Shown here piece by piece: positions 13,428 to 47,451 of a DNA stretch of 64,000 nt (positions are counted from its first letter, which is position 1; every line of letters starts with the position of its first letter). The stretch is from an uncultured Staphylococcaceae bacterium (GTDB lineage: Bacteria > Bacillota_I > Bacilli_A > RFN20 > CAG-826): positions 31,809 to 95,808 of the forward strand of contig CAYPGR010000003.1 of assembly GCA_964410505.1 (NCBI GenBank), read 5' to 3'. A program made the translations under genes and the position numbers. A model generated the notes under the pieces. It saw nothing but the letters and a program-made list of their open reading frames with translations. It did no database searches and was not told the origin of the DNA.

Positions 13428-15272
13428 TTAACTTAAATGCGTCGTAACGGCATTCTTCATACTATTAATAAAGTTTGTCATGAATGTCGTGTTATTAAAG
13501 GGCGAGACATAATATGCAGGATTATCTTTATCGGCAGGGCGGTCAAGGTCGCTTCCGCTTTTAGTATTGTAAGTCGCCTTATAGGTGTTAAAGAGGTTAT
13601 TGAAGGTGGTGTTCGTATAGAAAGAATCATTATTAAGGGACAGAATATAACTGACGTATTGATCACGGTAGGCTTGATTCATCGTAATATTATGATACGG
13701 GCGTTCATTATTATTTGAGGTAAGAATCGTGTACCAGAAGAGTCGATTTTCTTGCCATCCACTTGTATCCATGAGGTAACGGGTTTCAAATGGTGAGGCG
13801 CCAAACATCCGTGTGTTGCCTGCGTCCCATGTTAAGCCTAATCCCCAGTCATAGTCGTAGGGAATAAAGTAGGCTTTATTATTTTGACTTGGATTAAAGA
13901 AAATATAATAGTTATTGCCCCAGTTACGCATATCATCAATATTACCCATTAAGTAAGAGACAGCGGCATACTTTAAGAAACTATTGATATCAATGACAGC
14001 TTCAAGCGCTGGTGCGAATTCGCCAACTGACTTTCCTTCGTTATCTTTTAAGACTTTCATCAAATTGATCAGTTTCGCAAATGGATTGGCGGCAGTGTCG
14101 TCATATTCTTTCGCGTCATACGCTGGTGTATAACCGCGGAATTTATCTTCTTCGCCGATGACGGCATCGGCGATAAGTTGATCGTCATTCCACCTTAAAT
14201 CTTCATAACGGAGGCTACCTTTTACATCTTGTTCACTTGGCGATGGTTTACCCCAACCCACTTTATAAAGTTCGCCCGCCGCGGCGGCTTTCGGGAAATA
14301 ACGACGTAATAAATGTTTATCAACCGGTTCATTAATCGTCACGAGGCCAAGGCGGGTTCCATTGACATTTAAGGTTGTTAAGGTTGAGTTTTGACTAATA
14401 AGACCATGCTTTTGGAAGAAACTAAAGATGAATGGTTGAATGACTAAAGAGTCATCGCGCGACTTATTCCATTTAATGTCAATCTTTTTAAGGCCAAGTT
14501 TGCCAGATTCGTCACCCATAAAGGTTCGATCATCGCGCACTTTCCATTCTGGGTTAGCGGCTTTTGTCCATGTCTTCTTTAAATTATATGGGATGTATTC
14601 ATCGGTATCCCAAAGTTCATTAAATGATAGTTTAAAGTTCAAGGAATTATAAAAATTGCCGTCATTATCAATAAAATCTTGCCGGGATGTATTACCCTTC
14701 ATCCGCATCCCAACTTCATAATAGACAAATCGTTTTTGATTCATCACGACTTCAAGGGTCACTGGCCAATATAAATCAGCAAGGTTTTGTTCATGAACCC
14801 CATATTGTTCAATCCATTGGAAGATTTGTTTAGACGCTACAATTTTCAAGGCTAAATCCGTTTCCGGATGCCAAAATTCTAAGTACGCATTCGTTGGTTG
14901 AACTTGCGCATCAAGTGGATACGTAAACCCGTTCGGGAATGGCTTCACAGTATAGTCACCCGCAGTGTAGGTGATGAGCGGATCACTGACAATGTCCGTC
15001 GCAAAGGTCGCAATATTGGCCGGGGCGATATCTTCACTTCCGGGTTCACTTGTGGTTGAGATAATGGATGTTTCTTCGGTCCCACTAATAATGGAATCAA
15101 AGATACTCGTTACATCTTCTGAAATGACCTCAGGTTCGGTTACTGATTCACTAGCCGAACCTTCGGAAACTTGTGATGTTGTGTTAGGTTGACTAAGTAA
15201 GTCTTCAAGAGTTGCACATCCCGATAGGATTAAAGCAAAGGCAAGAAGACCCACACTTTTTCTAAATCGCAT
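13428..15272 (-). CDS. CotH-family (CotH kinase-like) secreted lipoprotein
   Basis: Lipoprotein signal MRFRKSVGLLAFALILSGC. The C-terminal half matches the CotH pattern: ELYKVGWG ... FLKYAAVSYLMGNIDD ... NNYYIFFNP ... FIPYDYDWGLG. Confidence 0.5.
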   Translation of the reverse strand: MRFRKSVGLLAFALILSGCATLEDLLSQPNTTSQVSEGSASESVTEPEVISEDVTSIFDSIISGTEETSIISTTSEPGSEDIAPANIATFATDIVSDPLITYTAGDYTVKPFPNGFTYPLDAQVQPTNAYLEFWHPETDLALKIVASKQIFQWIEQYGVHEQNLADLYWPVTLEVVMNQKRFVYYEVGMRMKGNTSRQDFIDNDGNFYNSLNFKLSFNELWDTDEYIPYNLKKTWTKAANPEWKVRDDRTFMGDESGKLGLKKIDIKWNKSRDDSLVIQPFIFSFFQKHGLISQNSTLTTLNVNGTRLGLVTINEPVDKHLLRRYFPKAAAAGELYKVGWGKPSPSEQDVKGSLRYEDLRWNDDQLIADAVIGEEDKFRGYTPAYDAKEYDDTAANPFAKLINLMKVLKDNEGKSVGEFAPALEAVIDINSFLKYAAVSYLMGNIDDMRNWGNNYYIFFNPSQNNKAYFIPYDYDWGLGLTWDAGNTRMFGASPFETRYLMDTSGWQENRLFWYTILTSNNNERPYHNITMNQAYRDQYVSYILSLNNDSFYTNTTFNNLFNTYKATYNTKSGSDLDRPADKDNPAYYVSPFNNTTFMTNFINSMKNAVTTHLS

Positions 15273-15336
15273 TAAAAATCCTCCAATCTTAATTACATTT
15301 TCATTATAACGCATATCAATAACACGTGAAGGAATT

Positions 15337-17114: not shown

Positions 17115-19856
17115 TTATGTCTTCGTTACTAAAATACTCCAAGCCGGTAATGTATTGCTAGTTGCCCCTTCAATACTTAAAACGACACTACCACTTAAAT
17201 TAAGACTATTAACCGCATCATTGCGGAGATTAATATAAATCTTAAAAGTGTCATTACCTAATGTTCTTTGGAAAGCAAAGACCGTATTTGAATAATTGTA
17301 TTCACTTAATGGAACCGGTGCGTAACTTCCCGTCTTGAGTGCTTGGTTTGCTTTCTTAAGGGCTGTAATCTTTTTCATTCGCCCAAGCATTGAGGCCTCA
17401 CTTGTTTGTTCAAGAACACCGTCAAGGGTCGTGTTATAGTCGTCCCAACCAACATCATAGGTCTGACCACCAGTAAATGAATAGTTGGTCGTCCGTGCAT
17501 CCGTGCCATTTTTATCCCATTTCATTGGTTGCCGGAAAATGCGGTCAATATTAGGGGTTGCTAAAGTTGTTTCTGTTGGTAAGTTACTGGAAAGTCCTAG
17601 CTCATCCCCGTAATAAATCCATGAGAGACCCGGTAAAAGCATGATCCCCGCCATATAGGCAATCGCCTGTTTTTCAATGAGTGTTTTAGCGGCCGTTGTC
17701 ACAATACCCGGTTTAATAATGTTACCGGCTTCATCAAGATAGCCAATTGCTTGGTTAATAGCACGGGTGACATCATGATTACTCGTAAAATTATTATCAA
17801 TCGCTTCGCCACTTTGGACACTCCCTGCGCTTCGGTAACGGTTATAAGCTTTAAAGGTATCATTATAGTTCCATTTCCCACCATAAGCTAGCCCTGCTTC
17901 ACTAAAGGTATCCCCGCCACTATTCGCGCCACTGACAGTCGCCGCTTTATTATATGAATAGAAAGCAGGTTGGCCACCCATCGAGGTGGCTTGGCTTAAG
18001 TTATAGTACATATAGAAGTTGAGCATCCCGTCAAGGCCTTCATAGTAAGGCGCGACGTGATAAGCATGACCATCAAAGTTTTCGCCCAGAATAAAAATAT
18101 CGGGATTCATCGCTTTAAGTCGGGCGTTTAATTCTTTAAATAAATGTAAGTTCTTGGTTAGGTTACTGGAATAATCTTGTTTTGAGACCGCATCATAGTC
18201 AGTAATGATCTTGTCTCCTCCGACTTGTGTCACTTCTTCCTTCATGTAGGCATGCTTGACGGCGTCGATGCGGAATCCGCGTACACCAAGGGTGACCCAG
18301 TGCCCCATAATATCGACAATCTTATCGCGGGTCTTTTGATAATCAAAATTGAGTTCAGGCATGCTACTTGCGAATTTACCGTAGTAATAATAATTATAAT
18401 TTGAATATTGGTACCAATTATTATTTTCTTTCGTGTTCCGCCAATGATAATAAGCCCGGTATTCAGGATTTAAACTGAGACTTTCTTGGAAGAGTAAATT
18501 ATTGATTGATGTATGGTTAATGACTAAATCCATGACCACACTCATGCCAAGCGTATCGGCCGCACTAATGAGTTCAACATAGTCTTGGTTAGCCGAAGCA
18601 ATTGTGACTTCACCGTCTTCAGCATAAGGACTCGTTCGGCTGCCAAACTTTGGATCAATATTATAATAATCAATCGTGTCATAACCGTGATAAGAATCAC
18701 TCAATTGAACGGGCGTCAACCATAAGGCTTCAACATGAAGACTTGCGAGGTAAGGTAAGCTCAACGTAATCCCGCGAATATCCCCAAAGCCATCACCGTC
18801 ACTATCCGCAAACGAACCGACCATGATTTGGTAACCAACCCCTTTTTGTTTCATTAAAGGTGAGGTCGGACTAATCGGACGGGGATTTTGGCTACTATTC
18901 ACATTGTTATAGTTACTTGAAATACTATTGCCATCATCAGCGGCATATGGATTATCATAGACTTCCCCACCATAGCGATAGGTGAAGTTACGAACATTTT
19001 CTTGCACAACAAAGACATGTAACGAACCGTTAAGGGCATATTCTTGTGCATCGGCGGTCGAAATAAACTTATCCCCGCCGTCACTCGTCCAATGGCCCCC
19101 AGACGTGCGACTACTCTTGTAGGTAATTAAAAATCCAATCCGCGGTACAACGACTTCATCAACACTGAAGTTAACCGGTTCACTTGTTTTACCGCCCGCT
19201 CCGTCATGGCCGCCATCGGTGTAAACATAGTTGAGGTTAATCTCAACCACGGCCCCACCAAAATCATCTTTATAGATGGTGCTGCCTTCTTGGTTAAAAT
19301 CAAAAATCCGTCCCGTTTTATTTGCCGGCCACACCCAAATGTCCCAGTTTGCATATTCAGATGGGGTATTATTAAAGCGTAAATAATGAATATATAAATG
19401 CCCCGGTTTACTGGTTAAGGCGAGGTGATTATTATACTCCGCCACCGCATCAAGGCCAAGTCCTTGCCATTTGGCGTACAAGACGACATCTCGTTCAGGC
19501 ATCGTATTAAACACAAATGGTTCAGTCCAATTGATTTTATCTTCATACCAGTCAATAAAGTTATAACCTTGGCGAACAGGGTTAAGTGGTTTCGTAATAA
19601 TGGCCCCTGCTTCGGCTTTTATACTACTGACTGAAGTCCCACCCTCACTATAAAAAACAATCGTGTATTTTGTGACGACACTTACACTTGTGACAGACGA
19701 ACTGTTTTCACTCGTCACCGTGTCACTCGTTGGGTTTTCACTTTCATTCGTATTAGGTGTTGAAATAGACGGATCACTGCTTGACGGGATCCTTGTACAG
19801 CCAACCAGCATCATGAGGGTCATTAATCCCAAATATAAGCGTTTTGCGTTTTGCAT
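17115..19856 (-). CDS. GH13 alpha-amylase-family lipoprotein with an N-terminal Listeria/Bacteroides-type repeat domain
   Basis: Lipobox LVGCTR. GH13 regions VVMDLVINHTS, GVRGFRIDAVKH, FILGENFD and FTSNHDVTR. Confidence 0.85.
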   Translation of the reverse strand: MQNAKRLYLGLMTLMMLVGCTRIPSSSDPSISTPNTNESENPTSDTVTSENSSSVTSVSVVTKYTIVFYSEGGTSVSSIKAEAGAIITKPLNPVRQGYNFIDWYEDKINWTEPFVFNTMPERDVVLYAKWQGLGLDAVAEYNNHLALTSKPGHLYIHYLRFNNTPSEYANWDIWVWPANKTGRIFDFNQEGSTIYKDDFGGAVVEINLNYVYTDGGHDGAGGKTSEPVNFSVDEVVVPRIGFLITYKSSRTSGGHWTSDGGDKFISTADAQEYALNGSLHVFVVQENVRNFTYRYGGEVYDNPYAADDGNSISSNYNNVNSSQNPRPISPTSPLMKQKGVGYQIMVGSFADSDGDGFGDIRGITLSLPYLASLHVEALWLTPVQLSDSYHGYDTIDYYNIDPKFGSRTSPYAEDGEVTIASANQDYVELISAADTLGMSVVMDLVINHTSINNLLFQESLSLNPEYRAYYHWRNTKENNNWYQYSNYNYYYYGKFASSMPELNFDYQKTRDKIVDIMGHWVTLGVRGFRIDAVKHAYMKEEVTQVGGDKIITDYDAVSKQDYSSNLTKNLHLFKELNARLKAMNPDIFILGENFDGHAYHVAPYYEGLDGMLNFYMYYNLSQATSMGGQPAFYSYNKAATVSGANSGGDTFSEAGLAYGGKWNYNDTFKAYNRYRSAGSVQSGEAIDNNFTSNHDVTRAINQAIGYLDEAGNIIKPGIVTTAAKTLIEKQAIAYMAGIMLLPGLSWIYYGDELGLSSNLPTETTLATPNIDRIFRQPMKWDKNGTDARTTNYSFTGGQTYDVGWDDYNTTLDGVLEQTSEASMLGRMKKITALKKANQALKTGSYAPVPLSEYNYSNTVFAFQRTLGNDTFKIYINLRNDAVNSLNLSGSVVLSIEGATSNTLPAWSILVTKT

Positions 19857-26093: not shown

Positions 26094-27764
26094 TTATGCT
26101 TCACAAGTCGTACATACTTTTTCTTTATTGAATTGCTGAGCGGCGTTCGTACTATGTTGGTAATAGAGTGACTTCACACCATTCTCCCATGCAAAGATTA
26201 ATAGAGCATTCATTTCTTTAGCGGACATTTTCGGATTAATCATCAAGTTTAACGATTGGCTTTGATCAATAAATTGTTGTCTAATCGCGGCTTGTTGAAT
26301 CACACTATATTGATCAAGTTCACTAAAAGTTTTAAAGACTTCTTTTTCTAATTCACTTAAAAAATCAAGATGTTGAACCGAACCATCATGGTCACGAATA
26401 TCATTCCATGTATCACGGTCATTTTTCCCTTTTCGTTCAAGCACTTCTTCTAAGAAAGGGTTCCGGATTGTCACTTTAGTCTTCGCCACATCTTTCACAT
26501 AGATATTCGACCAGACTGGCTCGATACTTTGTGAGACTTGCCCAAGAATAAAGGCGGAGGAAGTGGTTGGGGCAACCGCCGTTAAAGTTGTATTTCTGCG
26601 GCCATATCCTTTTAAGATTTCCGGTTCACCAAATAGGGAAGCAAGCTTTTGGGAAGCTAGGTGTGCTTTGTTGTTAATTTCTTTAAAGATCCTAGCGTTT
26701 AGTTTAGAGGCTTCTAAACTTTCAAAGGGAATCATTTTGGATTGAAGATATGAGTGCCATCCAAGCACCCCGAGGCCTAATGCCCGGTTTGCGACCGCAA
26801 AGTCATAAGCCCGGCGCATAAAGGAAAATGCTAAATTCTTTTCTTTTTCTTTAGCGTCCCGTAATGCTTCAAGTTTATGAATAAAGTCTGTCATCACCGC
26901 ATCAAGGAAAAAGATCATCGTTTCAACCGCGTCAGTATCTTTCCATTCATCAAAGTATAAAAGATTCATCGATGATAAGTTACACACAAAAGACCACGCT
27001 TCGTGATTGGGTAAGGCAATCTCAGAACAAAGATTACTATGTGTAATTTTGAGTCCTTTATCTTTATAGACATCGACAGTCTCACGATTAACGGTGTCAG
27101 TGAAGAAAATATAGGGATAACCGATTTCTACCCGCCTTTGGATGAGTTTCGCCCAGGTGGCTCGTTTTTTCATGTCTCCGGCAATCATTTCACGCATCCA
27201 GTTATCAGAAACCGTCACCCCGTGCGTAATTTCTTGAATGGGATTCCCTTCGGTGCCAATTTGGAGGAACTCATCGATATCTTGATGGTCAATTGGTAAG
27301 TAAGGGGCGAAGCGACCGCGTCTCGTTGATCCTTGGGACACGACATCAATAATCGTTTCAAATAACTTCATAAAATGAACCGCCCCAGATGAGGTGCCGT
27401 TATTAGTGATGACACCACCGCGAGGACGAAGATCACCAAAGTAACCTGACGTGCCGCCACCAAATTTAGACATCATCCCGACTTCACTTTGGGTATAAAG
27501 AATCGAGCCCATATTGTCACTGATATGTGAACCAAAGCAACTGATGGGTAATCCCTTATTCGTGCCAAAGTTAGACCAGACCGGTGACGATAGTGAATAA
27601 TACCCTGCCTTCATGTATGAGATAAACTTATCTTTAAAACCACTGATCCCTAAAAGCTTTTCAGCATAAGTGGCAATATCTTCAATTCTTTGTTCAGGGG
27701 TCATTCCGGGCGCTAAGTAGCCCCGTGATAAAAACAACCGACTATTTTCATTTAACCAACGCAT
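26094..27764 (-). CDS. nrdA: class I ribonucleotide reductase catalytic (alpha) subunit, short form without an ATP-cone
   Basis: Thiyl-radical loop SNLCSEI (N-x-C-x-E). Second Cys motif VCNLSS. C-terminal Cys pair CTTCEA. Confidence 0.8.
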   Translation of the reverse strand: MRWLNENSRLFLSRGYLAPGMTPEQRIEDIATYAEKLLGISGFKDKFISYMKAGYYSLSSPVWSNFGTNKGLPISCFGSHISDNMGSILYTQSEVGMMSKFGGGTSGYFGDLRPRGGVITNNGTSSGAVHFMKLFETIIDVVSQGSTRRGRFAPYLPIDHQDIDEFLQIGTEGNPIQEITHGVTVSDNWMREMIAGDMKKRATWAKLIQRRVEIGYPYIFFTDTVNRETVDVYKDKGLKITHSNLCSEIALPNHEAWSFVCNLSSMNLLYFDEWKDTDAVETMIFFLDAVMTDFIHKLEALRDAKEKEKNLAFSFMRRAYDFAVANRALGLGVLGWHSYLQSKMIPFESLEASKLNARIFKEINNKAHLASQKLASLFGEPEILKGYGRRNTTLTAVAPTTSSAFILGQVSQSIEPVWSNIYVKDVAKTKVTIRNPFLEEVLERKGKNDRDTWNDIRDHDGSVQHLDFLSELEKEVFKTFSELDQYSVIQQAAIRQQFIDQSQSLNLMINPKMSAKEMNALLIFAWENGVKSLYYQHSTNAAQQFNKEKVCTTCEA

Positions 27765-27784
27765 GATTACTCATCCTCTTTTCT

Positions 27785-29053
27785 TTAAAATAAGTCGTCG
27801 CCGGTAATACTCCGGGTCCGCTTGCTGTAATTGATCGACCGTTTGACAAAGAAGTCGACATGTTTGGTGGCGACGACTTCGTCATCAAACCAGTCAGTGG
27901 CTTTAACTGCTTCCTCATCAACGGGGAAAAGCCGTTCATAACCAATACTCACTAATGAGTTATTTAGTCTATTCTTCACAAATTCTTTGACAACGCTTTT
28001 AGGCATAAAGTCAAGATCACCTTTTTCATAGATCCAGTCGATGACAACTTCTTCCGAGCGATACGCTTCTAAGCACGCTTTACGAACCGCTTCTTTCATG
28101 TCGTCATCAAACCATTCTGGATGTTCATTTCGAATAATGTTAATAAGATCAATCCCAAAAAGACCGTGGATTTGTTCTTCTTTTGACGTCGCTTCAATCG
28201 CGTTTGACATCCCTTTAAAGAGGTTTTTAAATTTGTTAAACGCCATGATAATTAAAAACTGGGAAAATAATGAGACATGTTCGATAAAAAGGGAGAATAA
28301 CAGCACCGAAAGTGTAAAATCACGTTCACTGCTTGATTTTGCTAGATGGGTGGACTTCGTTAAGTAATCGACCCGCTGCATTAGTTCGGGAATATCTTTA
28401 AGTTTTAAAAATTCATCATTGAGACCGAGAATTTCTAAAAGGTGGGAATAGGCATCATGATGACGGACTTCACTTTCCGCGAAAGTGTAACCAACCGAAC
28501 CAATTTCTGGTTTTGGCATCTTGTGATAGAGGTCACCCCAGAATGTTTTAACTGCAACTTCCACTTGGGCAATCGCAAGCATCGCATTTTTTATAACACT
28601 TCGTTCGCCTTCGCTGACATTAACCATAAAATCTTGAATATCTGATGTATAGTTAAATTCCGTATGGAGCCAATAAGAATGTTGAATGGATTCTTTATAT
28701 TTAGCAAGTTCAGGATATTCATAAGGTTTTAGATTTAAACGAAATTTAAAAATATCGGGACGCCGGGCTTGGTTTCTTTTTTCGCGGTAGATAATAAACG
28801 CCTTGGCAGTCTTTTTATATGTTGATTCAAGTAGGACTGTTTCTACATAATCTTGAACCTTTTCAACCGTTAAAGTTTCGTAATCATTATTCGTCACGAT
28901 TAAATCTAATACGCGGGCAGTTAAGAGTTCGGTTTCTTCTAACGAAAACTCTCCTGTCGCCATTCGCGCTTTATTGAGGGCAGTAAATATCTTATGAGAA
29001 CGGAAAGGTTCAGTGGATCCATTGCGTTTCACAATGAGGGTTGGTAGTTTCAT
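27785..29053 (-). CDS. nrdB: ribonucleotide reductase radical-generating (beta) subunit with an N-terminal ATP-cone domain
   Basis: N-terminal VKRNGSTEPFRSHKI ATP-cone of about 90 aa. Ferritin-like ExxH metal ligands (ESEVRHH, EEQIHG). Confidence 0.75.
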   Translation of the reverse strand: MKLPTLIVKRNGSTEPFRSHKIFTALNKARMATGEFSLEETELLTARVLDLIVTNNDYETLTVEKVQDYVETVLLESTYKKTAKAFIIYREKRNQARRPDIFKFRLNLKPYEYPELAKYKESIQHSYWLHTEFNYTSDIQDFMVNVSEGERSVIKNAMLAIAQVEVAVKTFWGDLYHKMPKPEIGSVGYTFAESEVRHHDAYSHLLEILGLNDEFLKLKDIPELMQRVDYLTKSTHLAKSSSERDFTLSVLLFSLFIEHVSLFSQFLIIMAFNKFKNLFKGMSNAIEATSKEEQIHGLFGIDLINIIRNEHPEWFDDDMKEAVRKACLEAYRSEEVVIDWIYEKGDLDFMPKSVVKEFVKNRLNNSLVSIGYERLFPVDEEAVKATDWFDDEVVATKHVDFFVKRSINYSKRTRSITGDDLF

Positions 29054-29357
29054 TGATATCTCCTTTTGACACTTTTATTTTTCAATAATAACACGGGTCA
29101 AATAGGGGATGTCAACTCTTAGAGCTTATAAAAAAAAGATAAATATTATCGGTCGAATTGGTAGTTTTTTAGGGCAAAAAAAGGCTGGTTTAGAGACCCC
29201 GTATCACATTACTAAATTGGTACTAATGATATAGCGGCCACTAGCCTTCAATTAAAAGACATATGAAACTCGTTAGAAATTATGGCTTCAAGATTTAAGT
29301 CTATAGCCGAAAAAGTAAATGTGTTGTTTTCTTATTCTATTTTTTCTAAACAAAGGA

Positions 29358-31223
29358 TTAGTTAAATCTCATCATTAATCTTTCTTTTATATAATCGTTT
29401 AGTGCTTTATCTTCACAAAAAATGAAACAACCTTTTTGACCTCGTGATAACAATGTTTTATATGTATTACGAATTATTCGATCAGCTAGTTCATAGTTTT
29501 TTGAAGACTTAATTCCTTTGAGGCTTGCGTCCGACTTAGCTCGCATTTTATAATCTGTGATAACGCGACCTTCTTCAAACCTCATATCTTTTCCGATGAT
29601 AATCCCGACATAGTCAAACTCTAAACCTTGTGCTGTGTGAATGCACCCCACTTCATCAAATGAATCTTCGTCAATCGCCCAAGTGCTTGTGGAAGAAAAG
29701 TTCCATTTAGCTTTAAATCCATTGATGAGATTAATGTCATAGAGTTGGTGAGTCGGTTTATTTTTCGTCACCCACTCATAACAATAGCCTGCAATCATCC
29801 TTGCTTTATTGTTGATATGGTTTAAGTTTCGTAATTCTTCTCTCATCAAAATAGGGTCATCAAAAACACGAATATCATAATCTAAATCGAAACCATCGTA
29901 GTTAGCAGTTTCTCTGATTCCTAGTAAATGATCTAAAAATGCAATATAACCATCACTACCATTACATCTAAATTGTGAGGTGAGTTTAAAGTCATCACCA
30001 CTAAAAACTTTACTACCAAGACGTTGCGCTTGTTTCTTAATTTCTAAAATACTGCCAAAATCCTTCGTAGTAACAATCTGATCCTCGTCGATGAAGAAGA
30101 CACTCACGCGTGCCGCATTAATGATTTCTCTAATTTGGTTTTCGCCTAAATTCATAAACATTCCCGATTTCTCGTTGAGTCGGTGCGCCTCATCTACAAC
30201 TAAGCAATCAAACTCATTTGGTTTCGAATCAACATAAGCTCCTGAGCCCTTAAACATATTTTTAACATAATTTAGCTTGTAATTTCCTTGTCGCATTTTG
30301 TTGAAATAGACATTTCGTGGAGCAGCATTCTTTGTAACATAATTAACCATCATACTCTTAAACTCTGCTAAAAGATTGATCGCAATTACACTTTTACCCG
30401 TTCCAGGTCCGCCCTCAACAATTACCGTATACTTATTATTTGTCTTAATAGCATCTTCAACTAACTTCTTAACGGTTGAAAAGACGACTTTTTGTTCATC
30501 AATCATATAAAATTCTTGATTACCAGCGATCATCGAAACAATCGCATCTTGAAGGGCTTTAGAAGGTCTAATTTTCCCATGATCAATTTGGTAAAGAACT
30601 TCACCATTGTCAGATTTTGAAACATATTTCTTAATGAACTCTCTTAATTTTAATACGTCTCTTTTTAAATACATCGGTGAAACTTCCAAAATATCTTTAT
30701 ATAGATCGTTGTCGAGTTCATGTCTGAACTCTTCTCGAAAGTTATGTAAAAAACAGCAAGGATACAATTGAATTTCACTATTTTGAACGAATTCATTATA
30801 ATTTTCGATTGTCTTGGCGTATGAATAAGCTTGATAAGAAGGATGCGTAACTGCACGCATTGAACCGGCCAGGAATGTCGTTACAATGTCTTTACGACTC
30901 GTTCTTTGAGCTTCTTCCCATTGCTTTAATTCAACAATAACAACATTACTATTATCTGACTCATCTTTTCCGGAAATAATAAAATCGACTCTTTTTGAAG
31001 TAGCAGGAATTTGATATTCAATCGCCACGCGAATGTCTGTATTAATCTCATTAAAATCTAACACATTTTTCATATGTAAAAGAGAGTTGTCCCAAGCACG
31101 AAACTCAGATTCGTTATTGTTTATGATGCTTCGTTTTCTTAGTTCGGATTTAATTAATTCGGCAATAATCCCATTATCAACATCACTACTAAACTTTGCA
31201 ATTGTTCCTGAGTATACAATCAT
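29358..31223 (-). CDS. DUF2075-like protein: an N-terminal PD-(D/E)xK nuclease fold fused to a P-loop SF1-type helicase/ATPase
   Basis: RVDFIISGKD...VVIVELKQW (D...ExK). Walker A GGPGTGKS. Walker B LVVDEAH. C-terminal HTAQGLEFDYV, an SF1 motif VI-like sequence. Confidence 0.65.
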   Translation of the reverse strand: MIVYSGTIAKFSSDVDNGIIAELIKSELRKRSIINNNESEFRAWDNSLLHMKNVLDFNEINTDIRVAIEYQIPATSKRVDFIISGKDESDNSNVVIVELKQWEEAQRTSRKDIVTTFLAGSMRAVTHPSYQAYSYAKTIENYNEFVQNSEIQLYPCCFLHNFREEFRHELDNDLYKDILEVSPMYLKRDVLKLREFIKKYVSKSDNGEVLYQIDHGKIRPSKALQDAIVSMIAGNQEFYMIDEQKVVFSTVKKLVEDAIKTNNKYTVIVEGGPGTGKSVIAINLLAEFKSMMVNYVTKNAAPRNVYFNKMRQGNYKLNYVKNMFKGSGAYVDSKPNEFDCLVVDEAHRLNEKSGMFMNLGENQIREIINAARVSVFFIDEDQIVTTKDFGSILEIKKQAQRLGSKVFSGDDFKLTSQFRCNGSDGYIAFLDHLLGIRETANYDGFDLDYDIRVFDDPILMREELRNLNHINNKARMIAGYCYEWVTKNKPTHQLYDINLINGFKAKWNFSSTSTWAIDEDSFDEVGCIHTAQGLEFDYVGIIIGKDMRFEEGRVITDYKMRAKSDASLKGIKSSKNYELADRIIRNTYKTLLSRGQKGCFIFCEDKALNDYIKERLMMRFN

Positions 31224-35393: not shown

Positions 35394-36266
35394 TTATTCA
35401 ATTTCTTCGTAATAATATGAAGTATCAACGCCTTTTAAAAATAGTTCTCTATTGTCAATCTCATCAGTCAAAGCGTTTTTAAGTATTCTTTTAATGTCCT
35501 CATCACTATTTGGACTAAGAGTCATCGCATCTAAATATTCTTTTTTCTCAATTTTTGACCAATCAACACAAACGCTCAATTCTTTCTTAAAGATTAAATC
35601 GACCCAAATACGTGTTGCCCGACCATTACCTTCCATGAAAGGGTGTGCAACATTCATTTCAATATATTTATTAACAATTTCATCAAATGTTGATTGCGGC
35701 ATTTTTTCAATTTCTCCTAAAATTTGAGGTAGAAAATCACCATTTGCAAAAACAAAACCACCTTTAGAAATCGTTTTGGTCCTTATCTTTCCAGCGAATG
35801 GGTATAGACCTTCAAATAGAAACGCATGTATTTTTAGGAGGCTGATTGTTTTCCCAATTTCATCATCTTGAATAAGATTTGATTTGAACACTTCATAGGC
35901 TTTTCTTTTGCTTTGCTCATCAAGGGGATCTAACATTCCGGTTAGCCAATTTTGAACAGCTAATTTATGTTTGGATGGCATGATTGTTACAAATAGACGC
36001 ACACCTTCTTCATTCATAACATCCGATAGGTATTTCTTGTTATCAGCAGCATATAATTTCAGTTGTCCACAAAATGAAGTCAACTCAGGATGTCTCATTT
36101 TAAACATGTTCCAATATCTTCTAGCATCACTAGAATCTAAAAGCACTTTTGTTAAATCAACAGCGGAGTACCACCATTGAGATTTGTCATGATCCCAAAC
36201 AGCTCTAACTGGTTGATTATTAAAATAGCGAATGGAATGTTTTATCATAATTAGATGATATAACAA
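35394..36266 (-). CDS. Fic-family protein (AMPylase fold) with an N-terminal Bro-N-like domain
   Basis: Fic motif HPFMEGNGRATR. N-terminus IRYFNNQPVRAVWDHDKSQWWYSAVDLTKVL resembles Bro-N. The annotated start is a TTG; an ATG lies 18 nt downstream. Confidence 0.7.
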   Translation of the reverse strand: MLYHLIMIKHSIRYFNNQPVRAVWDHDKSQWWYSAVDLTKVLLDSSDARRYWNMFKMRHPELTSFCGQLKLYAADNKKYLSDVMNEEGVRLFVTIMPSKHKLAVQNWLTGMLDPLDEQSKRKAYEVFKSNLIQDDEIGKTISLLKIHAFLFEGLYPFAGKIRTKTISKGGFVFANGDFLPQILGEIEKMPQSTFDEIVNKYIEMNVAHPFMEGNGRATRIWVDLIFKKELSVCVDWSKIEKKEYLDAMTLSPNSDEDIKRILKNALTDEIDNRELFLKGVDTSYYYEEIE

Positions 36267-36300
36267 ACATTTTCAGTTGTCCACAAAATGTTGACAACTC

Positions 36301-36336
36301 AAATAAAAAAACAGGCCGATTGAATCAAGCCTGTTT
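36301..36336 (-). terminator. minus-strand intrinsic terminator upstream of fic
   Basis: AACAGGC-12 nt loop-GCCTGTT with TTTTTTTATTT on the minus strand. Confidence 0.45.
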
Positions 36337-36892
36337 AATCTAATGGAATTGTGTGACAGAAACGATTCAAAATCTAATTTGCGTTATTGAGAGTGATTGT
36401 GCTCCTCCCCTGGTCAACCTCCAATGTTTACAGGGGAACAATGTTGATTATGATGGCTATGACTATAGAAAATCGTTCTAGAGTCTAAAAAAATCCTCAA
36501 AAAAAGAAAAAAGTGTCCAAATAAAAAAAGGACTGATATTTATATATCAATCCAATCTCTCATTTTTGGAACCACACGTTTAGTTTGATACTTTGAATAC
36601 CCTAATAATTAACGAGTGAATACCTCTAGAACTATGATTCTTTTTTGACGCTATTTGACATAAGTAACGAATTTACTTTAAGGTGAACTGATACCAAAAA
36701 CCTGTACTTTAACTTCCTTGTAATTACTACATGGTTTATAGATAAATCACTCTATACTCATAAATCCTTTAGCTGTAAATGCCATCATATAAATGTAGGA
36801 AATTGACGGTCGAAAATGTAGGTTTCTTACGGGTATGCTTTTCTTTTTGATAAACTTTTTCTAACTCACGATTAGAAAGGTTTAGAAATTAA

Positions 36893-38095
36893 ATGAGAAG
36901 AGACTTATATGAAAGGATGGTATTTATGAAAAACCATGGTGAAGAGCCAAATTATGCCGAACTAGCTCGCCGCTATAACTGCGACTATCGGACGGTAAAA
37001 CGCTACTTTGAGGGTGACGGATCACTCAAAGAGAGAAAAAAGAATCCGTCGAAACTTGATAAATTTAAAGAAATTATTGAGGATAAACTGGAACTTGGTT
37101 GTACGTATGCTTCAATCTATCACTTTATTAAAAAGCTTGGTTATGACGGTAAGTATACAATTGTTCGTGAATATGCGAATAAAGTGATAGTGATCAAAAC
37201 AAAGAAAGCAACCGTTCGTTTTGAAACGATGCCAGGATTACAAGCACAAGTTGATTGGAAAGAACACCTAACCATGATTAGTCGTGAAGGCGAGGTCTTC
37301 ACCGTGAATATCTTCCTTCTTGTTCTTGGTTATTCACGTTTAAAATTTCTAAAGCTGACCCTTGACCGTAATCAAGACACTCTAAAGGAGGCGCTGGTAG
37401 AAGGGTTCAAGTATATAGGTGGAATTCCAAAAGAGATTCTCTTCGATAATATGAAAACTGTGATTGATCAAAGTCGTTCGCACTTCATGGACGCGGTTGT
37501 TAACGAGGACTTCTACGCCTTTAGTAAGGATATGGGTTTCGAGGTAATTGCTTGTCGCGCTTATCGCCCCGAAACAAAGGGAAAAGTTGAAGCACTCGCT
37601 AAGTTTACAAGCCGCCTTCAACCTTACAACCACGACTTTGTTTCCCTTGATGAATTAAATGAAATTGTCAAAATGGTCAATGATGACATAAATCACGAAA
37701 TATCCCAAGCGACAAACGAAATCCCTCTCACTCGTCATAAAAATGAAAAAGAATACTTATTACCCTTACCACGCGCTGAACTTCTTCTTAACTTCCTTAC
37801 TAAACCACTAACAAGAATCGTTACGAAGGAGTCACTCATTACGTATCAGAATAACAAATATTCCTTGCCCCCTTATTATATCGGAAAAACTTTAACGATT
37901 AAACCATCCGCTGTTAACCTCGATATTTTTGATAACGGTGTCCTCATTATGCGCCACCCCCTCTCAAATAAAAAATACAACTACAAAAAAGAACATTATA
38001 TTGAAATTCTTAAAAGTGATGCCCTCCCCTTTAAAAATGATGATGATATTAATCGCATCGCCGAAAAGAATTTAAAACTCTACGATAATCTCTAA
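36893..38095 (+). CDS. istA: IS21-family transposase IstA
   Basis: N-terminal HTH (ELARRYNCDYRTVKRYF). DDE region typical of IstA. Confidence 0.8.
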   Translation: MRRDLYERMVFMKNHGEEPNYAELARRYNCDYRTVKRYFEGDGSLKERKKNPSKLDKFKEIIEDKLELGCTYASIYHFIKKLGYDGKYTIVREYANKVIVIKTKKATVRFETMPGLQAQVDWKEHLTMISREGEVFTVNIFLLVLGYSRLKFLKLTLDRNQDTLKEALVEGFKYIGGIPKEILFDNMKTVIDQSRSHFMDAVVNEDFYAFSKDMGFEVIACRAYRPETKGKVEALAKFTSRLQPYNHDFVSLDELNEIVKMVNDDINHEISQATNEIPLTRHKNEKEYLLPLPRAELLLNFLTKPLTRIVTKESLITYQNNKYSLPPYYIGKTLTIKPSAVNLDIFDNGVLIMRHPLSNKKYNYKKEHYIEILKSDALPFKNDDDINRIAEKNLKLYDNL

Positions 38096-38112
38096 AAGGA
38101 AAGAACACCAAA

Positions 38113-38868
38113 ATGTCCCATTATAATCAACTTATTAATAATTTAGATAACCTTAAACTCTTGAAAATGCGCGAACTCCTTCCCGCTTATCTTGATGATG
38201 CTATTATTAAAAACAAATCATTTGTTGATATTTTTAAAGAACTAACCGATCAAGAAGTTGCTTTCCGCGAAGAACGCGCACGCCTTATTAATCTTACTAT
38301 TTCGCATTTCCCCTATCACAAACGTCTCGATGATTTTGATTTTGGCTACCAACCGTCCATTAATAAAACCCAGATTCTCGATCTTGCTTCGCTTCGCTTT
38401 GTTGAACAGGTTGAAAATATCCTCCTTATCGGCAACTCCGGTGTCGGCAAAACGCACCTTGCTACCGCGCTTGGCATTGAAGCTTCCAGTAAACGCGTCT
38501 CGACCTATTTTATCCACTTTAATACACTCATGCAAAAGTTTAAAGTCGCCGCGAGTGAAGGTACCGTCGACAAAGTTGTTAAACATTATCTAAAATACAA
38601 ACTGCTTATCGTCGACGAAGTTGGCTATCTTCCTGTTGATAAAGATGCCGCGAATGGTTTCTTTCAGCTTGTCGCCGCTCGCTATGAAAGACGACCGCTA
38701 ATTATTACATCAAATTTACCACTTTCTAAATGGGGCGATGTCTTTGGTGATTATACAATCGCTAACGCTATTATTGATCGCCTTGTTCATCATTCTCACA
38801 TTATCAAAATAACCGGGCAATCCTACCGCATCAAAGGTAAACTCCAATTTGAAAATGACGAGGACTAG
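38113..38868 (+). CDS. istB: IS21-family helper ATPase IstB
   Basis: Walker A GNSGVGKTHLA and Walker B LLIVDEVGY. 17-nt spacing after istA. Confidence 0.85.
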   Translation: MSHYNQLINNLDNLKLLKMRELLPAYLDDAIIKNKSFVDIFKELTDQEVAFREERARLINLTISHFPYHKRLDDFDFGYQPSINKTQILDLASLRFVEQVENILLIGNSGVGKTHLATALGIEASSKRVSTYFIHFNTLMQKFKVAASEGTVDKVVKHYLKYKLLIVDEVGYLPVDKDAANGFFQLVAARYERRPLIITSNLPLSKWGDVFGDYTIANAIIDRLVHHSHIIKITGQSYRIKGKLQFENDED

Positions 38869-39088
38869 TCCTCGTCATTTACCTACATTTTCAACCGCTA
38901 TAAACCAACATAAATTTCTTGACAATTACAAATACGCACAGTTGTATAGACCGTTGGAATGAGCCCCATTAGCAATAAGGCAAGTAGGAGGCGGTAATTT
39001 ATTTTTTTAATTGATTTAGATATATTGCGCATCATTAATCTTTATTTTAGCAATGTATTTAAAGGAAAAATAGATATTTTTTTTATAG

Positions 39089-40084
39089 TTATTCTTGATA
39101 TCCCAGTTTTATTAATAACCCACCAATTAATGGACAGATGTTATTTGAGTTAGTTAACAAACTATTAATACCCAATAAGGAACATATTTTATTTGCTCTG
39201 CGTTTATTAGTATCTATGTAGCAGGTGGATACTCTATCTACATGCAGGGTTATTTTCCACTTGTTATCTGTTGTTTGTTCCTCTTTAAACATAATTTGCT
39301 GTACTAGTTCATGGATTTTCAATTTATATAATATTTCTTTTCCATTATTCTCATTTAAGCCAATAAGAAAATCTTTAATGGCGATTTCTTCTTTATTCTC
39401 TATTATTTTCTCATGGGCTAGGCTAGCGGCTTGTAAGAGTGCATCTACTTTAGTATCAGAAATTCCCTCTATCTCATAATTGCCAAACTTTATTGTTGCC
39501 CTATAAAAACCGTTGCCCTTGTTCTCGAGGAGCTTAAAAGAATAGGTTAACTTATTATGTTTTTTTACTTTGCACCATCTTTTAACATATAAAAAAGAGG
39601 CAAACCCTTTGTAATTAATTTGTGTTCTATGAAACAACAAATTATTCACTAAATCGTAAAGCTTAATTTGATTAAAATTAGAATCAATAGCGATGGAGCC
39701 TACAACGCTCTCGAGTAAATCTCCTCTATAAGATCTTTGGATTTGTTCATTAGGGCTTAATCTAATATAGTGTTCGAACCCCAACTTATGTATGATAGAA
39801 GCGAGATTTTCATTCTCGACAATTAGTGATTTAAGAAATGTCAATTCTCCTGGATTAAATACGCTTTTTAGACCTTGACTATCATTTGACATTATTTGAT
39901 CAAATAGAATTTTTGTAACGTGATATTCGATGACTCTATCACCAATAAATTCTAGTACTTCAGAATTAAGCTCTTTTGATTCATTTGAAAATGAACTTCT
40001 CGTAAATGCTTGTCTCAAAAGCGCTTTATTTTTGAATTCGTAATCTAATTCTTTTTCAATTTGAATAATATCTTTTTCATCCAC
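39089..40084 (-). CDS. RNase III-family protein with two C-terminal dsRBD-like modules
   Basis: RNase III signature ALLRQAFTRSS...EVLEFIGDRV. Second catalytic segment GDLLESVVGSIAID. dsRBD-like segments GNGFYRATIKFGNYEIEGISDTKVDALLQAASLA and NKWKITLHVDRVSTCYIDTNKRRANKICSLLG. Confidence 0.55.
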   Translation of the reverse strand: MDEKDIIQIEKELDYEFKNKALLRQAFTRSSFSNESKELNSEVLEFIGDRVIEYHVTKILFDQIMSNDSQGLKSVFNPGELTFLKSLIVENENLASIIHKLGFEHYIRLSPNEQIQRSYRGDLLESVVGSIAIDSNFNQIKLYDLVNNLLFHRTQINYKGFASFLYVKRWCKVKKHNKLTYSFKLLENKGNGFYRATIKFGNYEIEGISDTKVDALLQAASLAHEKIIENKEEIAIKDFLIGLNENNGKEILYKLKIHELVQQIMFKEEQTTDNKWKITLHVDRVSTCYIDTNKRRANKICSLLGINSLLTNSNNICPLIGGLLIKLGYQE

Positions 40085-40184
40085 AATGACAAATCAATCC
40101 CCTAGAGTAAATTTATTATGATAAAACTATTTTTTAAGGCGACCTTTAAGAATCAACACTTTCGTTAATTTTAAGAACCATCAG

Positions 40185-41213
40185 TTAATTAGTAACTTCA
40201 GGTATCTCCGTTAGTCTTTTTCCATTAAATTTAAAATAAAGAGGGCCTTGATATGCTCCACTACTATTCACCTTTCCTAAACGAGTAAATAGTTCTCTTG
40301 TTAATGGCGATAAGTACCAGAGCCTACCTTCAAACATGACTTTTCGTTCATTTTCAACATAGGCAACAAAGGACTCGTTTTCAGCAAAGACAATCTCCGC
40401 CCCTTTTTTAATACCTCTTTTAAAGAAATTAAAACGCGTATTGACTTCTTCTCCATTCGTCTTATCTACCTGCTCATTGCCGCTATTTTTAATGTCTCTA
40501 GCAGCGCCAGATACAGAAACCTCAGTAATATCTTCAATGATTTTGACAAATTTAGATAATTTAATACCTTTTCCTATTTCAACATTCAAAAAATCTTTAC
40601 CTGTGGCTTCGAAGGCGAGATTTTTAATAGAATAATTTTTTAAATCATCTCCATACCGGATGCCAAACATATGCAGCATAGTCATTTGATAGCCATCAGG
40701 AGCCTCATTGTACATTTTTTTTAAAATTTCCAAGTATTCATTATAGGTCAAATGACCATTTCCTTTTGGGAGGTCTTGGAATAGAAAATTTTGTATTATT
40801 TTCTTGTTTTCTGGCCAGGCTTTAATATCCGTGAGTTGTATACTTTCAGAGTCAAAATCGAAAAATAAAAATGGGAGATTGTCTTTAGAAATCTTGAGTA
40901 AATTGTCAATATTCTTTTTTGTTTTTCGTTTGTTTTCATGGAATTTATTTGATTGCACGCTGGACATTTTCAGCAAAGTATTAAAATCGTTTGTATTTTC
41001 AATGCTAAAGTTGGAATCAAGAAAATGATTAATCGTTTCAAAAATAGCAATGTCATATATCCTATTTGATTTACTCTCCCTGATATATTTTTTGATAATT
41101 TGAGCAACTATATCATCATATGTAATTTTGACAGAATATGGATCCATCCTTTCGTCTATCAGGTCAATCAATGCACTAAAGACGTTTCTTTGGAGCGTAT
41201 TTGCGGTTTGCAT
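40185..41213 (-). CDS. hypothetical protein (342 aa), co-operonic partner of the SMC-like ATPase
   Basis: ORF. 1-nt gap to the upstream 119-aa gene. Confidence 0.4.
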   Translation of the reverse strand: MQTANTLQRNVFSALIDLIDERMDPYSVKITYDDIVAQIIKKYIRESKSNRIYDIAIFETINHFLDSNFSIENTNDFNTLLKMSSVQSNKFHENKRKTKKNIDNLLKISKDNLPFLFFDFDSESIQLTDIKAWPENKKIIQNFLFQDLPKGNGHLTYNEYLEILKKMYNEAPDGYQMTMLHMFGIRYGDDLKNYSIKNLAFEATGKDFLNVEIGKGIKLSKFVKIIEDITEVSVSGAARDIKNSGNEQVDKTNGEEVNTRFNFFKRGIKKGAEIVFAENESFVAYVENERKVMFEGRLWYLSPLTRELFTRLGKVNSSGAYQGPLYFKFNGKRLTEIPEVTN

Positions 41214-41214
41214 A

Positions 41215-41574
41215 TTAAATTATATCCACTATGGTCCAATCTTTATTATTATTGATGATATCCAGTATCTTATCTAAACCTATACTTATTACTGCTCTAA
41301 GTGCATAATCTTCATCTTTTACGTCATCATGATACAACCTAATTAACGTCCTAAAAAATTTGTCACCATCAAAATCTTCCATATGCCATTTGTTGTTTTT
41401 AAAACTGCCTTTGTATTCGTCTAGTGGCTTGTACTGGCTTAAATCAACCCTAGACAAGGCGTAACTAGCTGCAAATTTCGCTGTCGTCTTATCGTCATCA
41501 AAATATCCTTTTTCTTTAAGTTTGGCAATGCATTCATCATTGTCAACTGAAATGTTAATATCTGCTAGTGGCAT
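41215..41574 (-). CDS. small hypothetical protein (119 aa), co-operonic partner of the SMC-like ATPase
   Basis: ORF. 1-nt gaps on both sides. Confidence 0.4.
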   Translation of the reverse strand: MPLADINISVDNDECIAKLKEKGYFDDDKTTAKFAASYALSRVDLSQYKPLDEYKGSFKNNKWHMEDFDGDKFFRTLIRLYHDDVKDEDYALRAVISIGLDKILDIINNNKDWTIVDII

Positions 41575-41575
41575 A

Positions 41576-43600
41576 TTATTTCTCCCTTACATTGGTATTG
41601 AAGGAATTTCCTTCTTGATATATCTCTAATTCCTTTATTAGTTTATTACCTAAAATTGCTCTGGTTTTACTAATATCAATTTTGTCGTTATGAATCAGCA
41701 AAATCAACTGTGGTGCGATTTCATTAAATGTTTTTATTATGTTGTTTGTGTATGAATTTTGAAGAACTGAAAAGGCTGCATCAAAAAATATGGTGCCAAA
41801 TAATTGAGAGTTGTGGTTTAAACCAAAAATTAATGATAATGCTAATAAAGTATTGTATCCCGTTCCGGGAATGGGCATAATTGAATCGTCCTTCATTACA
41901 ATTTTCATGCGATAGTTTTCATTTATATGAATTTGTTTAATATCTTGATTTTCGCCCTCGATAAATTTCATGAAAATATCACTTGAAGAAATTTGAACTT
42001 TTTGTCTCATGGTAGAGATAAACTGTTCTTTAGAATTTTTGTAGGTCGTTCGCACATGATCAATTGTCTTAAGTTCATTTTCAAGATCACTAGTATCAAA
42101 ATCAGTTCCCATTTTCTTTATTAGAGCTGTAATTTTTCCATTTAATCTTTCATAATCTTTAATCAGGTTTTCATTTAGCGTTGTCTCCCATTTGCTGATT
42201 AGATTTTCTGACTGAGTTTTTTTCATAAATGCGTCCTTAAAATAGGTGTTTAAATCTGAGCCGCTTGAACTTAATTCATCACGTGTTTTTTTAGCATCGT
42301 TAAGAAGACTATGTCTTTTATTTTCGTACATGATTAAATCTTCTTGGTAACTTCTTAGCGTTTTGTCGTTAAAAAATGTCAGTTCAGAAAGTATTTTAGT
42401 AAATTTGACTATTTTATTGTTGGAATATTCATATGAAGTCATCTCGTCGCTCGATAAGGAACTTTGAGAGATTTTAAACTTGATTTCATCAACCTTGGAT
42501 TTAAAGAAAACTATTTTTTCTAAGGGTAAGTGACTACCACAATACTGACAAGTATCATTATTCAGTAGATCCTCATATGTTTTTAATTCAACTCTAAATT
42601 TATTAATTATTTGGTGTCGGTCGGAGATAAGAGAGAATTTTTCTTCCATCGTTTTAATCTCTTGTATAATTTTCGAATATTGCAGAGATTTTATATTTTC
42701 TTTTAGAAAGTTTTTAATGTCCGTTTTTCTTGATTTAATCAATGCTTCAGTGGAATTAATCTCTTTTTCAATTTTTTCCAAGTATTTGTAGGCAGCGATT
42801 TTTCTACCATTAGCGTCAAGATCTTCATTTAAACGAGTTAACTCCTCTTTTTCCTTTTCAATTTTCCTGTTTAAATCGTCAATCTCTTTCTTTTTTAAAC
42901 TCAATTCTTGTTGCTTATCCTGCAATTCTTTCTTGTCATTTTCATTTTTTGAATTTCTATTTACGATGGAAGAAATTTGATAATAGGTTTGACTATAAAG
43001 ACTGTCTAAACGAGCAATGATTCTATCAATAAATGGGGTTCCGATAATCTTGTTAATAGCTTCTTTAATTCTTCTATTTTCAGTGCCAGTAGCACTATCA
43101 TTGTTGAGAATTTCAATGTATTTTTCAATGTTTTCTCCATCAAAAAGCATAAATTCAGAGATGTCTTTTGGAATTATTTTATCAATGATATCTTGTGTAT
43201 ATTTCTCTGATTGATATTGACCATCTTCTTGCAATGTCATCGTCATCTTAAAATCATTGTCTGATTTAGGTTTTCCCATCACGTTTGAGTCAAAATTATA
43301 CTCTCTTTTCATCTTGTAAGTTTTACCATTATAGATAAACTCCATATATGCATAGAATCTATAATCTTCATTCTCGTAAGCAATTTTGTTTATAGATAAT
43401 GAAATTTTATAATTTGGGTCGTCGGGATTGTCTTTAAGATAGTTAAAAAGCAAAAACCGAATACCATTGATAAATGAAGTCTTTCCAGTATTATTATTAC
43501 CAAAAATTATAGAGGTTCCTTTATTAGATCCTAAATCAAATTCCTTGACTCCATAGTAGGGAATAAAGTTTTTGAATGATATCTTGAGTATCTGTATCAT
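41576..43600 (-). CDS. SMC/Rad50-like ABC ATPase with a long coiled-coil and a central CxxC hook-like motif
   Basis: N-terminal Walker A GNNNTGKTS. Long K/E-rich helical middle region. CQYC near the midpoint. C-terminal Walker B / D-loop IFFDAAFS. Confidence 0.7.
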   Translation of the reverse strand: MIQILKISFKNFIPYYGVKEFDLGSNKGTSIIFGNNNTGKTSFINGIRFLLFNYLKDNPDDPNYKISLSINKIAYENEDYRFYAYMEFIYNGKTYKMKREYNFDSNVMGKPKSDNDFKMTMTLQEDGQYQSEKYTQDIIDKIIPKDISEFMLFDGENIEKYIEILNNDSATGTENRRIKEAINKIIGTPFIDRIIARLDSLYSQTYYQISSIVNRNSKNENDKKELQDKQQELSLKKKEIDDLNRKIEKEKEELTRLNEDLDANGRKIAAYKYLEKIEKEINSTEALIKSRKTDIKNFLKENIKSLQYSKIIQEIKTMEEKFSLISDRHQIINKFRVELKTYEDLLNNDTCQYCGSHLPLEKIVFFKSKVDEIKFKISQSSLSSDEMTSYEYSNNKIVKFTKILSELTFFNDKTLRSYQEDLIMYENKRHSLLNDAKKTRDELSSSGSDLNTYFKDAFMKKTQSENLISKWETTLNENLIKDYERLNGKITALIKKMGTDFDTSDLENELKTIDHVRTTYKNSKEQFISTMRQKVQISSSDIFMKFIEGENQDIKQIHINENYRMKIVMKDDSIMPIPGTGYNTLLALSLIFGLNHNSQLFGTIFFDAAFSVLQNSYTNNIIKTFNEIAPQLILLIHNDKIDISKTRAILGNKLIKELEIYQEGNSFNTNVREK

Positions 43601-46132: not shown

Positions 46133-46139
46133 TTTCGTC

Positions 46140-47364: not shown

Positions 47365-47451
47365 TGGTGCCTCCGGTCGGACTCGAACCGACACAGTATC
47401 GCTACTATTGGATTTTGAGTCCAACGCGTCTACCAATTTCACCACGGAGGC
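47365..47451 (-). tRNA. tRNA-Leu (anticodon CAA), long variable arm, CCA encoded
   Basis: Reverse complement is GCCTCCGTGGTGAAATTGGTAGACGCGTTGGACTCAAAATCCAATAGTAGCGATACTGTGTCGGTTCGAGTCCGACCGGAGGCACCA. Confidence 0.85.

Follow-up and report, generated by a model that had tools for sequence, protein, structure and literature searches.

Genes at the locus and architecture of their products

The 64,000-nucleotide (nt) stretch of DNA analysed here, hereafter the window (contig CAYPGR010000003.1 of an uncultured bacterium), carries on its minus strand two adjacent genes, nrdB and nrdA, encoding the radical-generating and the catalytic subunit of an aerobic ribonucleotide reductase (RNR). Based on the evidence given below, the region is very probably a bicistronic nrdB-nrdA operon for an enzyme of class Id (NrdAi/NrdBi) with a switch, formed by an ATP-cone borne on NrdB, like that of Leeuwenhoekiella blandensis. 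The genes and the domains of NrdB are the following (aa, amino acids):

27785-29053, minus strand: nrdB, 422-aa radical-generating subunit, an ATP-cone fused to a core of apparent NrdBi (class Id) type
28772..29035, minus strand: ATP-cone domain (PF03477), NrdB residues 7-94, predicted allosteric activity site for ATP or dATP
27917..28741, minus strand: ferritin-like R2 core with the dimetal site (PF00268), NrdB residues 105-379
27788..27874, minus strand: C-terminal tail of NrdB (about residues 394-422, ending in ...SITGDDLF), predicted NrdA-binding peptide
26094-27764, minus strand: nrdA, catalytic subunit of NrdAi type (556 aa), lacking an ATP-cone

According to the list of open reading frames (ORFs), nrdA lies 3' of nrdB on the same strand with a gap of 20 nt, and the beta-before-alpha order reported in a preliminary description of this DNA was thus confirmed. 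Both genes are preceded by a Shine-Dalgarno sequence, AAAGGAG in the case of nrdB, located 6 nt 5' of the ATG of an unbroken ORF, and AAGAGGA in the case of nrdA. Pfam searches identified the upstream neighbour of nrdB as a gene for a DUF2075/Schlafen-type helicase, and the downstream neighbours of nrdA as genes for a 392-aa putative lipoprotein and an AIM24 protein. Since neither of the intergenic regions flanking nrdBA contains an ORF of at least 60 aa, nrdI and nrdH are not adjacent to the operon, in agreement with the same description. When the six frames of the window were searched with tblastn, no second ATP-cone, R2 core or NrdA and no nrdR were detected, the copy in nrdB being the sole cone of the window.

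The cone that had been proposed for the first 90 or so residues of NrdB is recognized by PF03477 at residues 7-94 with 72.0 bits (E 6.2e-20), well past the gathering cutoff of 25.8 bits, and its VKRNG string begins at residue 8. There are only six residues ahead of the cone, and neither Pfam nor NCBIfam detected a glutaredoxin domain. The R2 core, matched by PF00268 at residues 105-379 with 192.6 bits (E 1.2e-56), contains the expected ExxH motifs (E195-H198 and E293-H296). All six metal ligands of L. blandensis NrdB have a counterpart, E170, E200, H203, E263, E298 and H301 corresponding to E165, E195, H198, E258, E293 and H296 of the window protein. The same holds for the lysine on the distorted first helix that is directed into the metal site (K174, here K169), the subclass-invariant tryptophan (W177, here W172) and the non-radical tyrosine (Y207, here Y202); the roles of these residues are those reported for the L. 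blandensis protein (eLife 2018, PMC5794259).

Residues 7-422 of NrdB could be aligned to the L. blandensis NrdB tetramer with bound dATP (5OLK; E 2.4e-169), the overall identity being 61%. The C-terminus, which from general knowledge of class I RNRs we take to be the peptide that docks on NrdA, is nearly identical in both proteins; in 5OLK it is disordered, as described to be typical for NrdB/F proteins (PMC5794259). The top eight matches of NrdB in the PDB (5OLK, 6SF4, 8DQ3, 6CWO-Q and 8DQ4/5 among them) are all beta subunits of class Id, with E-values from 2e-169 to 5e-87, after which the E-value falls from 5e-87 to 2e-22 and reaches about 1e-10 for class Ic. As judged by this ranking, the core most likely belongs to the NrdBi subclass. 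A class Ib enzyme (NrdE/NrdF with NrdI and NrdH) was considered and rejected, given that the scores for TIGR04171 NrdF (46.9 bits, cutoff 355) and TIGR04170 NrdE (158 bits, cutoff 750) are far under the cutoffs and that small flanking ORFs are missing.

NrdA contains the catalytic barrel (PF02867, 316.5 bits) and passes the model TIGR02510 "NrdE-prime" of NCBIfam, which describes a family of short class I alpha subunits, with 745 bits against a cutoff of 602. The catalytic residues are present (C76, N244, C246, E248, C261, the radical-transfer pair Y534-Y535 and the C-terminal pair C551/C554), and the motifs SNLCSEI and CTTCEA that had been noted earlier were located at residues 243-249, which include N244, C246 and E248, and 551-556, respectively. 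Among solved structures, NrdA is closest to 6DQX (E 2e-210) and 6DQW (E 2e-183), presumably the alpha structures of Actinobacillus ureae and Flavobacterium johnsoniae, respectively. The enzymes of these two organisms are characterised NrdAi proteins of class Id in the literature, where the median length of NrdAi is given as 564 aa. The preliminary description stated that NrdA lacks a cone and starts directly with the barrel. The first part holds, as no match to PF03477 was found by Pfam; the second does not, as a short helical segment, weakly matched at residues 4-71 by the all-alpha domain PF00317 (sub-threshold), precedes the barrel. A hidden cone on NrdA was also discarded, considering that the sequence 5' of nrdA is nrdB itself and that the ORF begins where the alpha structures of class Id begin.

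The ATP-cone as a predicted allosteric switch

Conservation of the cone was evaluated in an alignment of 13 sequences from Acholeplasma, Haploplasma, Erysipelothrix, Paenibacillus, Oceanobacillus, Lysinibacillus, Flavobacteriia, Patescibacteria and one Pseudomonadales metagenome-assembled genome (MAG). Sixteen columns are invariant, the KR and AKAxIxYR motifs among them; the invariant residues include K9, R10, F17, E64, Q67, V70, E71, K84, I87, Y89, R90 and R97, while K21, I22 and D68 are conserved in at least 90% of the sequences. The junction between cone and core is placed identically in 13/13 proteins, and its common pattern, ...YRxxRxxxR(K/R)xx(I/L)F..., speaks for one fusion of cone and core rather than several. 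Residues that form the cone-cone interface and an internal salt bridge in L. blandensis (D73, K89, I92, I93 and R95) are found as D68, K84, I87, I88 and R90. In a partial check, the list of dATP contacts being contained in a figure of the source (PMC5794259), the residues that serve nucleotide binding and the beta4 interface were mostly kept.

The NrdB of L. blandensis stays dimeric with ATP and can then enter the active alpha2beta2 complex; the binding of two dATP per cone makes the cones pair and leads to a beta4 tetramer, to which NrdA is bound non-productively as alpha2beta4 or alpha4beta4 (PMC5794259). Data from small-angle X-ray scattering and cryo-electron microscopy suggest that the tetramer sterically prevents the formation of the asymmetric active complex (PMC8350387), and the cofactor of the subclass has been described as Mn2(IV,III) (PMC6754362).

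For the architecture, subclass, residue conservation and gene order found in the window, a mechanism may be proposed by homology, with metal identity and nucleotide stoichiometry taken over in the same way. NrdA, having a specificity site and no site for overall activity, would reduce ribonucleoside diphosphates by thiyl-radical chemistry at C246, and its oxidised active site would be re-reduced through C551/C554 by a thioredoxin-like protein encoded elsewhere. NrdB would provide the oxidant from a dimanganese centre, Mn(III)/Mn(IV), with neither a stable tyrosyl radical nor a need for NrdI. The cofactor of the class Id enzyme of F. johnsoniae is reportedly assembled with superoxide and independent of NrdI, a property that fits the absence of nrdI beside nrdBA. 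The N-terminal cone of NrdB would then act as the master on/off switch. If L. blandensis is taken as the model, NrdB with ATP in its cone would stay a beta2 dimer able to form the active alpha2beta2 complex with NrdA, and a build-up of dATP would place two dATP in each cone, so that two dimers may associate by their cones, through helices alpha3 and alpha4, into an inactive beta4. NrdA could still bind this form (alpha2beta4 or alpha4beta4), although not in the asymmetric geometry required for radical transfer.

Some observations speak against extending the L. blandensis scheme to every detail of the window enzyme. The two cones are just 40% identical, compared to 67% for the cores, and the window cone has L75 in place of the interface residue M80, N11 in place of D13 and T72 in place of D77. 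In addition, the identity of the metal is not readable from sequence alone, and the cone of Facklamia ignava, which is on an NrdBi too, binds one ATP instead of two (PMC6187632); therefore, the stoichiometry is not safely read from sequence.

On these grounds, an enzyme with the same cone and allosteric details unlike those of L. blandensis (one ATP per cone, other adenine nucleotides, or an oligomer other than that of 5OLK) may be envisaged, and we consider it an improbable alternative. It is favoured by the fast evolution of the cone, evident also among the loci L001-L023 (Acholeplasma, Haploplasma, Erysipelothrix and Paenibacillus), where cones are 53-66% and cores 76-88% identical, as well as by the substitutions mentioned and by the variable stoichiometry of NrdBi cones that the F. 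ignava protein exemplifies. However, most of the salt-bridge and hydrophobic residues of the 5OLK interface are kept or conservatively swapped, and the F. ignava protein still goes to beta4 with dATP (PMC6187632).

It is very unlikely that the cone is a non-functional relic and that overall activity regulation is absent, as in the cone-less enzymes of class Id. It is true that many NrdBi proteins function without a cone, for instance those of the loci L075-L080 and of PDB 6CWO, and that some other RNRs have degenerate cones, such as the partial one mentioned for class Ib (PMC9669993). On the other hand, the Pfam score of the window cone is nearly three times the cutoff, and the 16 columns, KR and YR motifs included, have stayed invariant across phyla in spite of an overall identity of 30-40%, which points to purifying selection on nucleotide binding.

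Finally, a fusion artefact, in which an assembly chimera or a wrong start would have joined an NrdR-like or NrdA-derived cone to nrdB, is effectively refuted. The ORF with its Shine-Dalgarno sequence is continuous, the N-terminus MKLP.L I.KRNG is shared with an Acholeplasma MAG, cone and core are joined in the same way in 5OLK and in at least 70 genomes, and the exact NrdB protein was found on 13 independent metagenome contigs, which by itself argues against an error of assembly. An activity switch of the L. blandensis type is the preferred interpretation of the NrdB cone.

Distribution and relation to characterised systems

Among the best 120 database clusters for NrdB (72-99% identity), 120/120 carry both Pfam domains. 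Eighty related genome loci were also compared, the relatives being GTDB species representatives; the closest of these are an Acholeplasma MAG (82% NrdB identity) and Haploplasma modicum (79%), followed by Erysipelothrix (74-79%) and Paenibacillus (about 73%), and then by Flavobacteriia, Patescibacteria and others with about 56-61%. The cone is present in about 70 of the 80 loci (Acholeplasma, Haploplasma, Erysipelothrix, Bacillales, Flavobacteriia and Patescibacteria), and in every cone-bearing locus with a visible nrdA this gene follows nrdB on the same strand. In three Deinococcota loci without a cone the order is reversed. This pattern agrees with Burnim et al. (2022), who noted that cones on beta are nearly confined to operons with beta ahead of alpha, above all those of NrdAi.

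Full-length cone-NrdB followed by NrdA was also detected in phages, including the Sporosarcina phage Lietuvens (69.5% NrdB identity) and Staphylococcus phages of Herelleviridae type (about 62-64%); several of these cassettes, in Staphylococcus phages, are annotated as "class Ia", which looks like a misannotation. In the Staphylococcus phage UHP46 a gene with a thioredoxin domain lies directly 5' of the cone-NrdBi and NrdAi cassette. A phage or mobile-element origin of the window operon was rejected; the GC content of nrdBA and its value at third codon positions (GC3) agree with those of the adjacent genes, the downstream gene is kept across strains and no phage genes are located nearby. Moreover, plasmid matches to NrdB are all under 60% identity and none spans residues 1-63, which comprise most of the cone, so that no close plasmid copy was found.

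As a separate observation, nrdA is split by an insert of about 0.9-1 kb in Paenibacillus pini (L021:6013-7010) and Oceanobacillus sp. (L026:6196-7073), at the position equivalent to residue 246 of the window NrdA. The insert, which falls at the thiyl-radical cysteine of the active site, probably represents an intein or group I intron.

In 2018, NrdBi cones were known from several bacterial phyla and from viruses, with 93 RefSeq sequences (PMC5794259), and the cone-NrdBi of F. ignava was interpreted as a product of horizontal transfer (PMC6187632). The loci compared here indicate that beta-borne cones are far more widespread than those 93 mostly flavobacterial sequences, extending to Patescibacteria, many Bacillota and large Staphylococcus phages.

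The preliminary description had called NrdB-borne cones a known but unusual arrangement with precedents in Leeuwenhoekiella and Facklamia, which is correct (PMC5794259, PMC6187632) and is borne out by the full-length match to 5OLK. The NrdAi/NrdBi enzyme of L. blandensis (5OLK, 6SF4; PMC5794259) shares with that of the window the cone, a short linker, the class Id core and the C-terminal tail, together with a cone-less NrdA, the order nrdB-then-nrdA, the metal ligands, the residues equivalent to K174, W177 and Y207 and most residues of the cone-cone interface. It differs in its host, a member of Flavobacteriaceae and not of a Bacillota lineage resembling Acholeplasma and Erysipelothrix, and in the cone, which in the window protein has a three-residue deletion in the alpha2-alpha3 loop besides the changes D13N, D77T and M80L. 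The Grx::ATP-cone::NrdBi of F. ignava (JBC 2018, PMC6187632), which forms beta4 with dATP and contains Mn(III)/Mn(IV), likewise comes from a Firmicute and combines a cone on NrdBi with nrdA downstream of nrdB, whereas the window protein has no glutaredoxin domain and its cone starts at residue 7.

The cone-less enzymes of F. johnsoniae and A. ureae (6CWO-Q, 6DQW, 6DQX) belong to the same NrdAi/NrdBi subclass and have the same minimal alpha architecture, the window NrdB core matching 6CWO with E 7e-95 and NrdA matching 6DQX with E 2e-210; unlike the window protein, their beta subunits have no ATP-cone and hence no overall activity regulation. The class Ia NrdA of Pseudomonas aeruginosa (5IM3) contains a cone of the same type, with two dATP and pairing through alpha3/alpha4, and the window cone matches its residues 34-133 (E 1.9e-4); in that enzyme, however, it is the catalytic subunit that bears the cone, and the assembly driven by the cone is alpha4 instead of beta4.

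Upstream region, remaining features and meaning of the locus

Two further features were recognized 5' of nrdB:

29054..29190, minus strand: promoter and leader of nrdBA, assigned by eye, without an NrdR box
29176..29248, minus strand: long imperfect hairpin followed by a T-run; the fold shows a stem and UUUUUUU

The putative promoter, as read by eye, consists of a -35 element TTGACA at 29115-29110 and an extended -10 element TGtTATTAT at 29093-29085 with a spacer of 19 nt, and is followed by the ribosome-binding sequence AGGAG at 29064-29060. A scan with consensus models for promoters and terminators returned nothing specific, promoter-like sites being fewer than in shuffled sequences; the length of the spacer explains why the promoter was not called. 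An alignment of strain variants with differing upstream genes showed that the last 135 nt or so before the ATG of nrdB are 100% identical.

The hairpin with its T-run probably terminates transcription of the upstream helicase gene and marks the upstream edge of the nrdBA unit, an interpretation that was preferred over a leader RNA because the synteny among strains breaks at this point. A riboswitch or leader RNA 5' of nrdB was rejected, with no Rfam family found and a fold z-score of -0.58. At the gathering threshold, Rfam detected three tRNAs and nothing else in the whole window, and a permissive scan of 28950-29450 gave chance matches of snoRNA type only (E at least 0.25).

The slot 5' of nrdB differs among strains with identical NrdB, and identity resumes at the T-run of the terminator, about 135 nt before nrdB. 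In the window the slot (29358-31223, minus strand) is occupied by the 621-aa DUF2075/Schlafen-type helicase, with weak PADLOC matches to PDC-S41, AbiO and Nhi, and in other contigs (L081-L086) by a 265-aa helicase fragment plus an FGase gene, or by an unrelated 399-aa protein resembling NTP_transf_2.

NrdR boxes, the search for which in 29054-29357 had been suggested as a check, were sought as a tandem of the 16-bp pattern acaCwAtATaTwGtgt with about 31-32 bp between copies. Both the pattern search and a weighted scan were negative; no match with up to three mismatches was found in 29054-29357, where the best weighted score (15/22) equals the background, and the pattern with up to three mismatches matched the whole window at one unrelated position, 54899, less often than expected by chance. 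The weighted scan, which covered the upstream regions in the window and 35 relatives, did not detect boxes 5' of the genes of the Acholeplasma, Erysipelothrix and Bacillales relatives either. Convincing tandem boxes were found only in the Candidatus Gracilibacteria locus L064, which served as a positive control with scores of 21/22 and 17/22 for two boxes 32 bp apart. In this locus (HOT-871, L064:3900-4000) the boxes, GCACTATATATTGTGT and TTTATATATTTTGTGT, lie 5' of a cone-NrdB gene that contains in-frame stops under genetic code 11, which would fit the alternative genetic code of the lineage.

Other parts of the window contain gene groups of a different nature. The region 35394-47451, which has a low GC content (0.30-0.36) and lies next to tRNA-Leu(caa) (47365-47451), resembles a defence island. 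It encodes a Fic protein (PDC-S04), IS21 istA/istB (36893-38868), an RNase III-like protein, an HTH_73/PDC-S57 protein, the defence proteins PbeC/DndD-like (41576-43600) and PbeA (43775-46375) and a DNA methyltransferase (46140-47006). A run of genes on the minus strand at 48662-62723 suggests a metabolism of polyhydroxyalkanoate (PHA) or short-chain acyl-CoA, and includes those for a thiolase (58600-59808), an SDR reductase, a FabH-like protein, a branched-chain amino-acid ABC transporter, an acetyl-CoA hydrolase/transferase and an intracellular short-chain-length PHA depolymerase (60547-61497); this run would be unexpected if the organism were a reduced, Acholeplasma-like mollicute. Two large glycoside hydrolases of pullulanase/alpha-amylase type, with PUD, CBM48 and Listeria-Bacteroides repeat domains, are encoded at 9965-13369 (plus strand) and 17115-19856 (minus strand), and a CotH kinase-like protein at 13428-15314.

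Altogether, the nrdBA operon of the window is a typical representative of a known family, that of the L. blandensis type, whose structure and biochemistry have been characterised and of which it is an orthologue. Its contribution consists of a new host lineage (Bacillota, Acholeplasma-like) and of a much wider distribution than first reported, and it opens no new question. There is a slight chance that the clade of cone-NrdBi proteins from Acholeplasma, Erysipelothrix and Bacillales departs from L. blandensis in nucleotide stoichiometry or in the inhibited oligomer, as the 40% identity of the cone and the residues N11, T72 and L75 might hint, and that, with no NrdR boxes, the beta-borne cone is the only feedback of dATP on the aerobic supply of deoxyribonucleoside triphosphates in this organism. 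The correct annotation of the two genes is class Id NrdAi plus ATP-cone::NrdBi, and the locus is in line with the published view of ATP-cones as mobile in evolution and passed on together with a cassette in which beta precedes alpha, such cassettes being carried by phages too.

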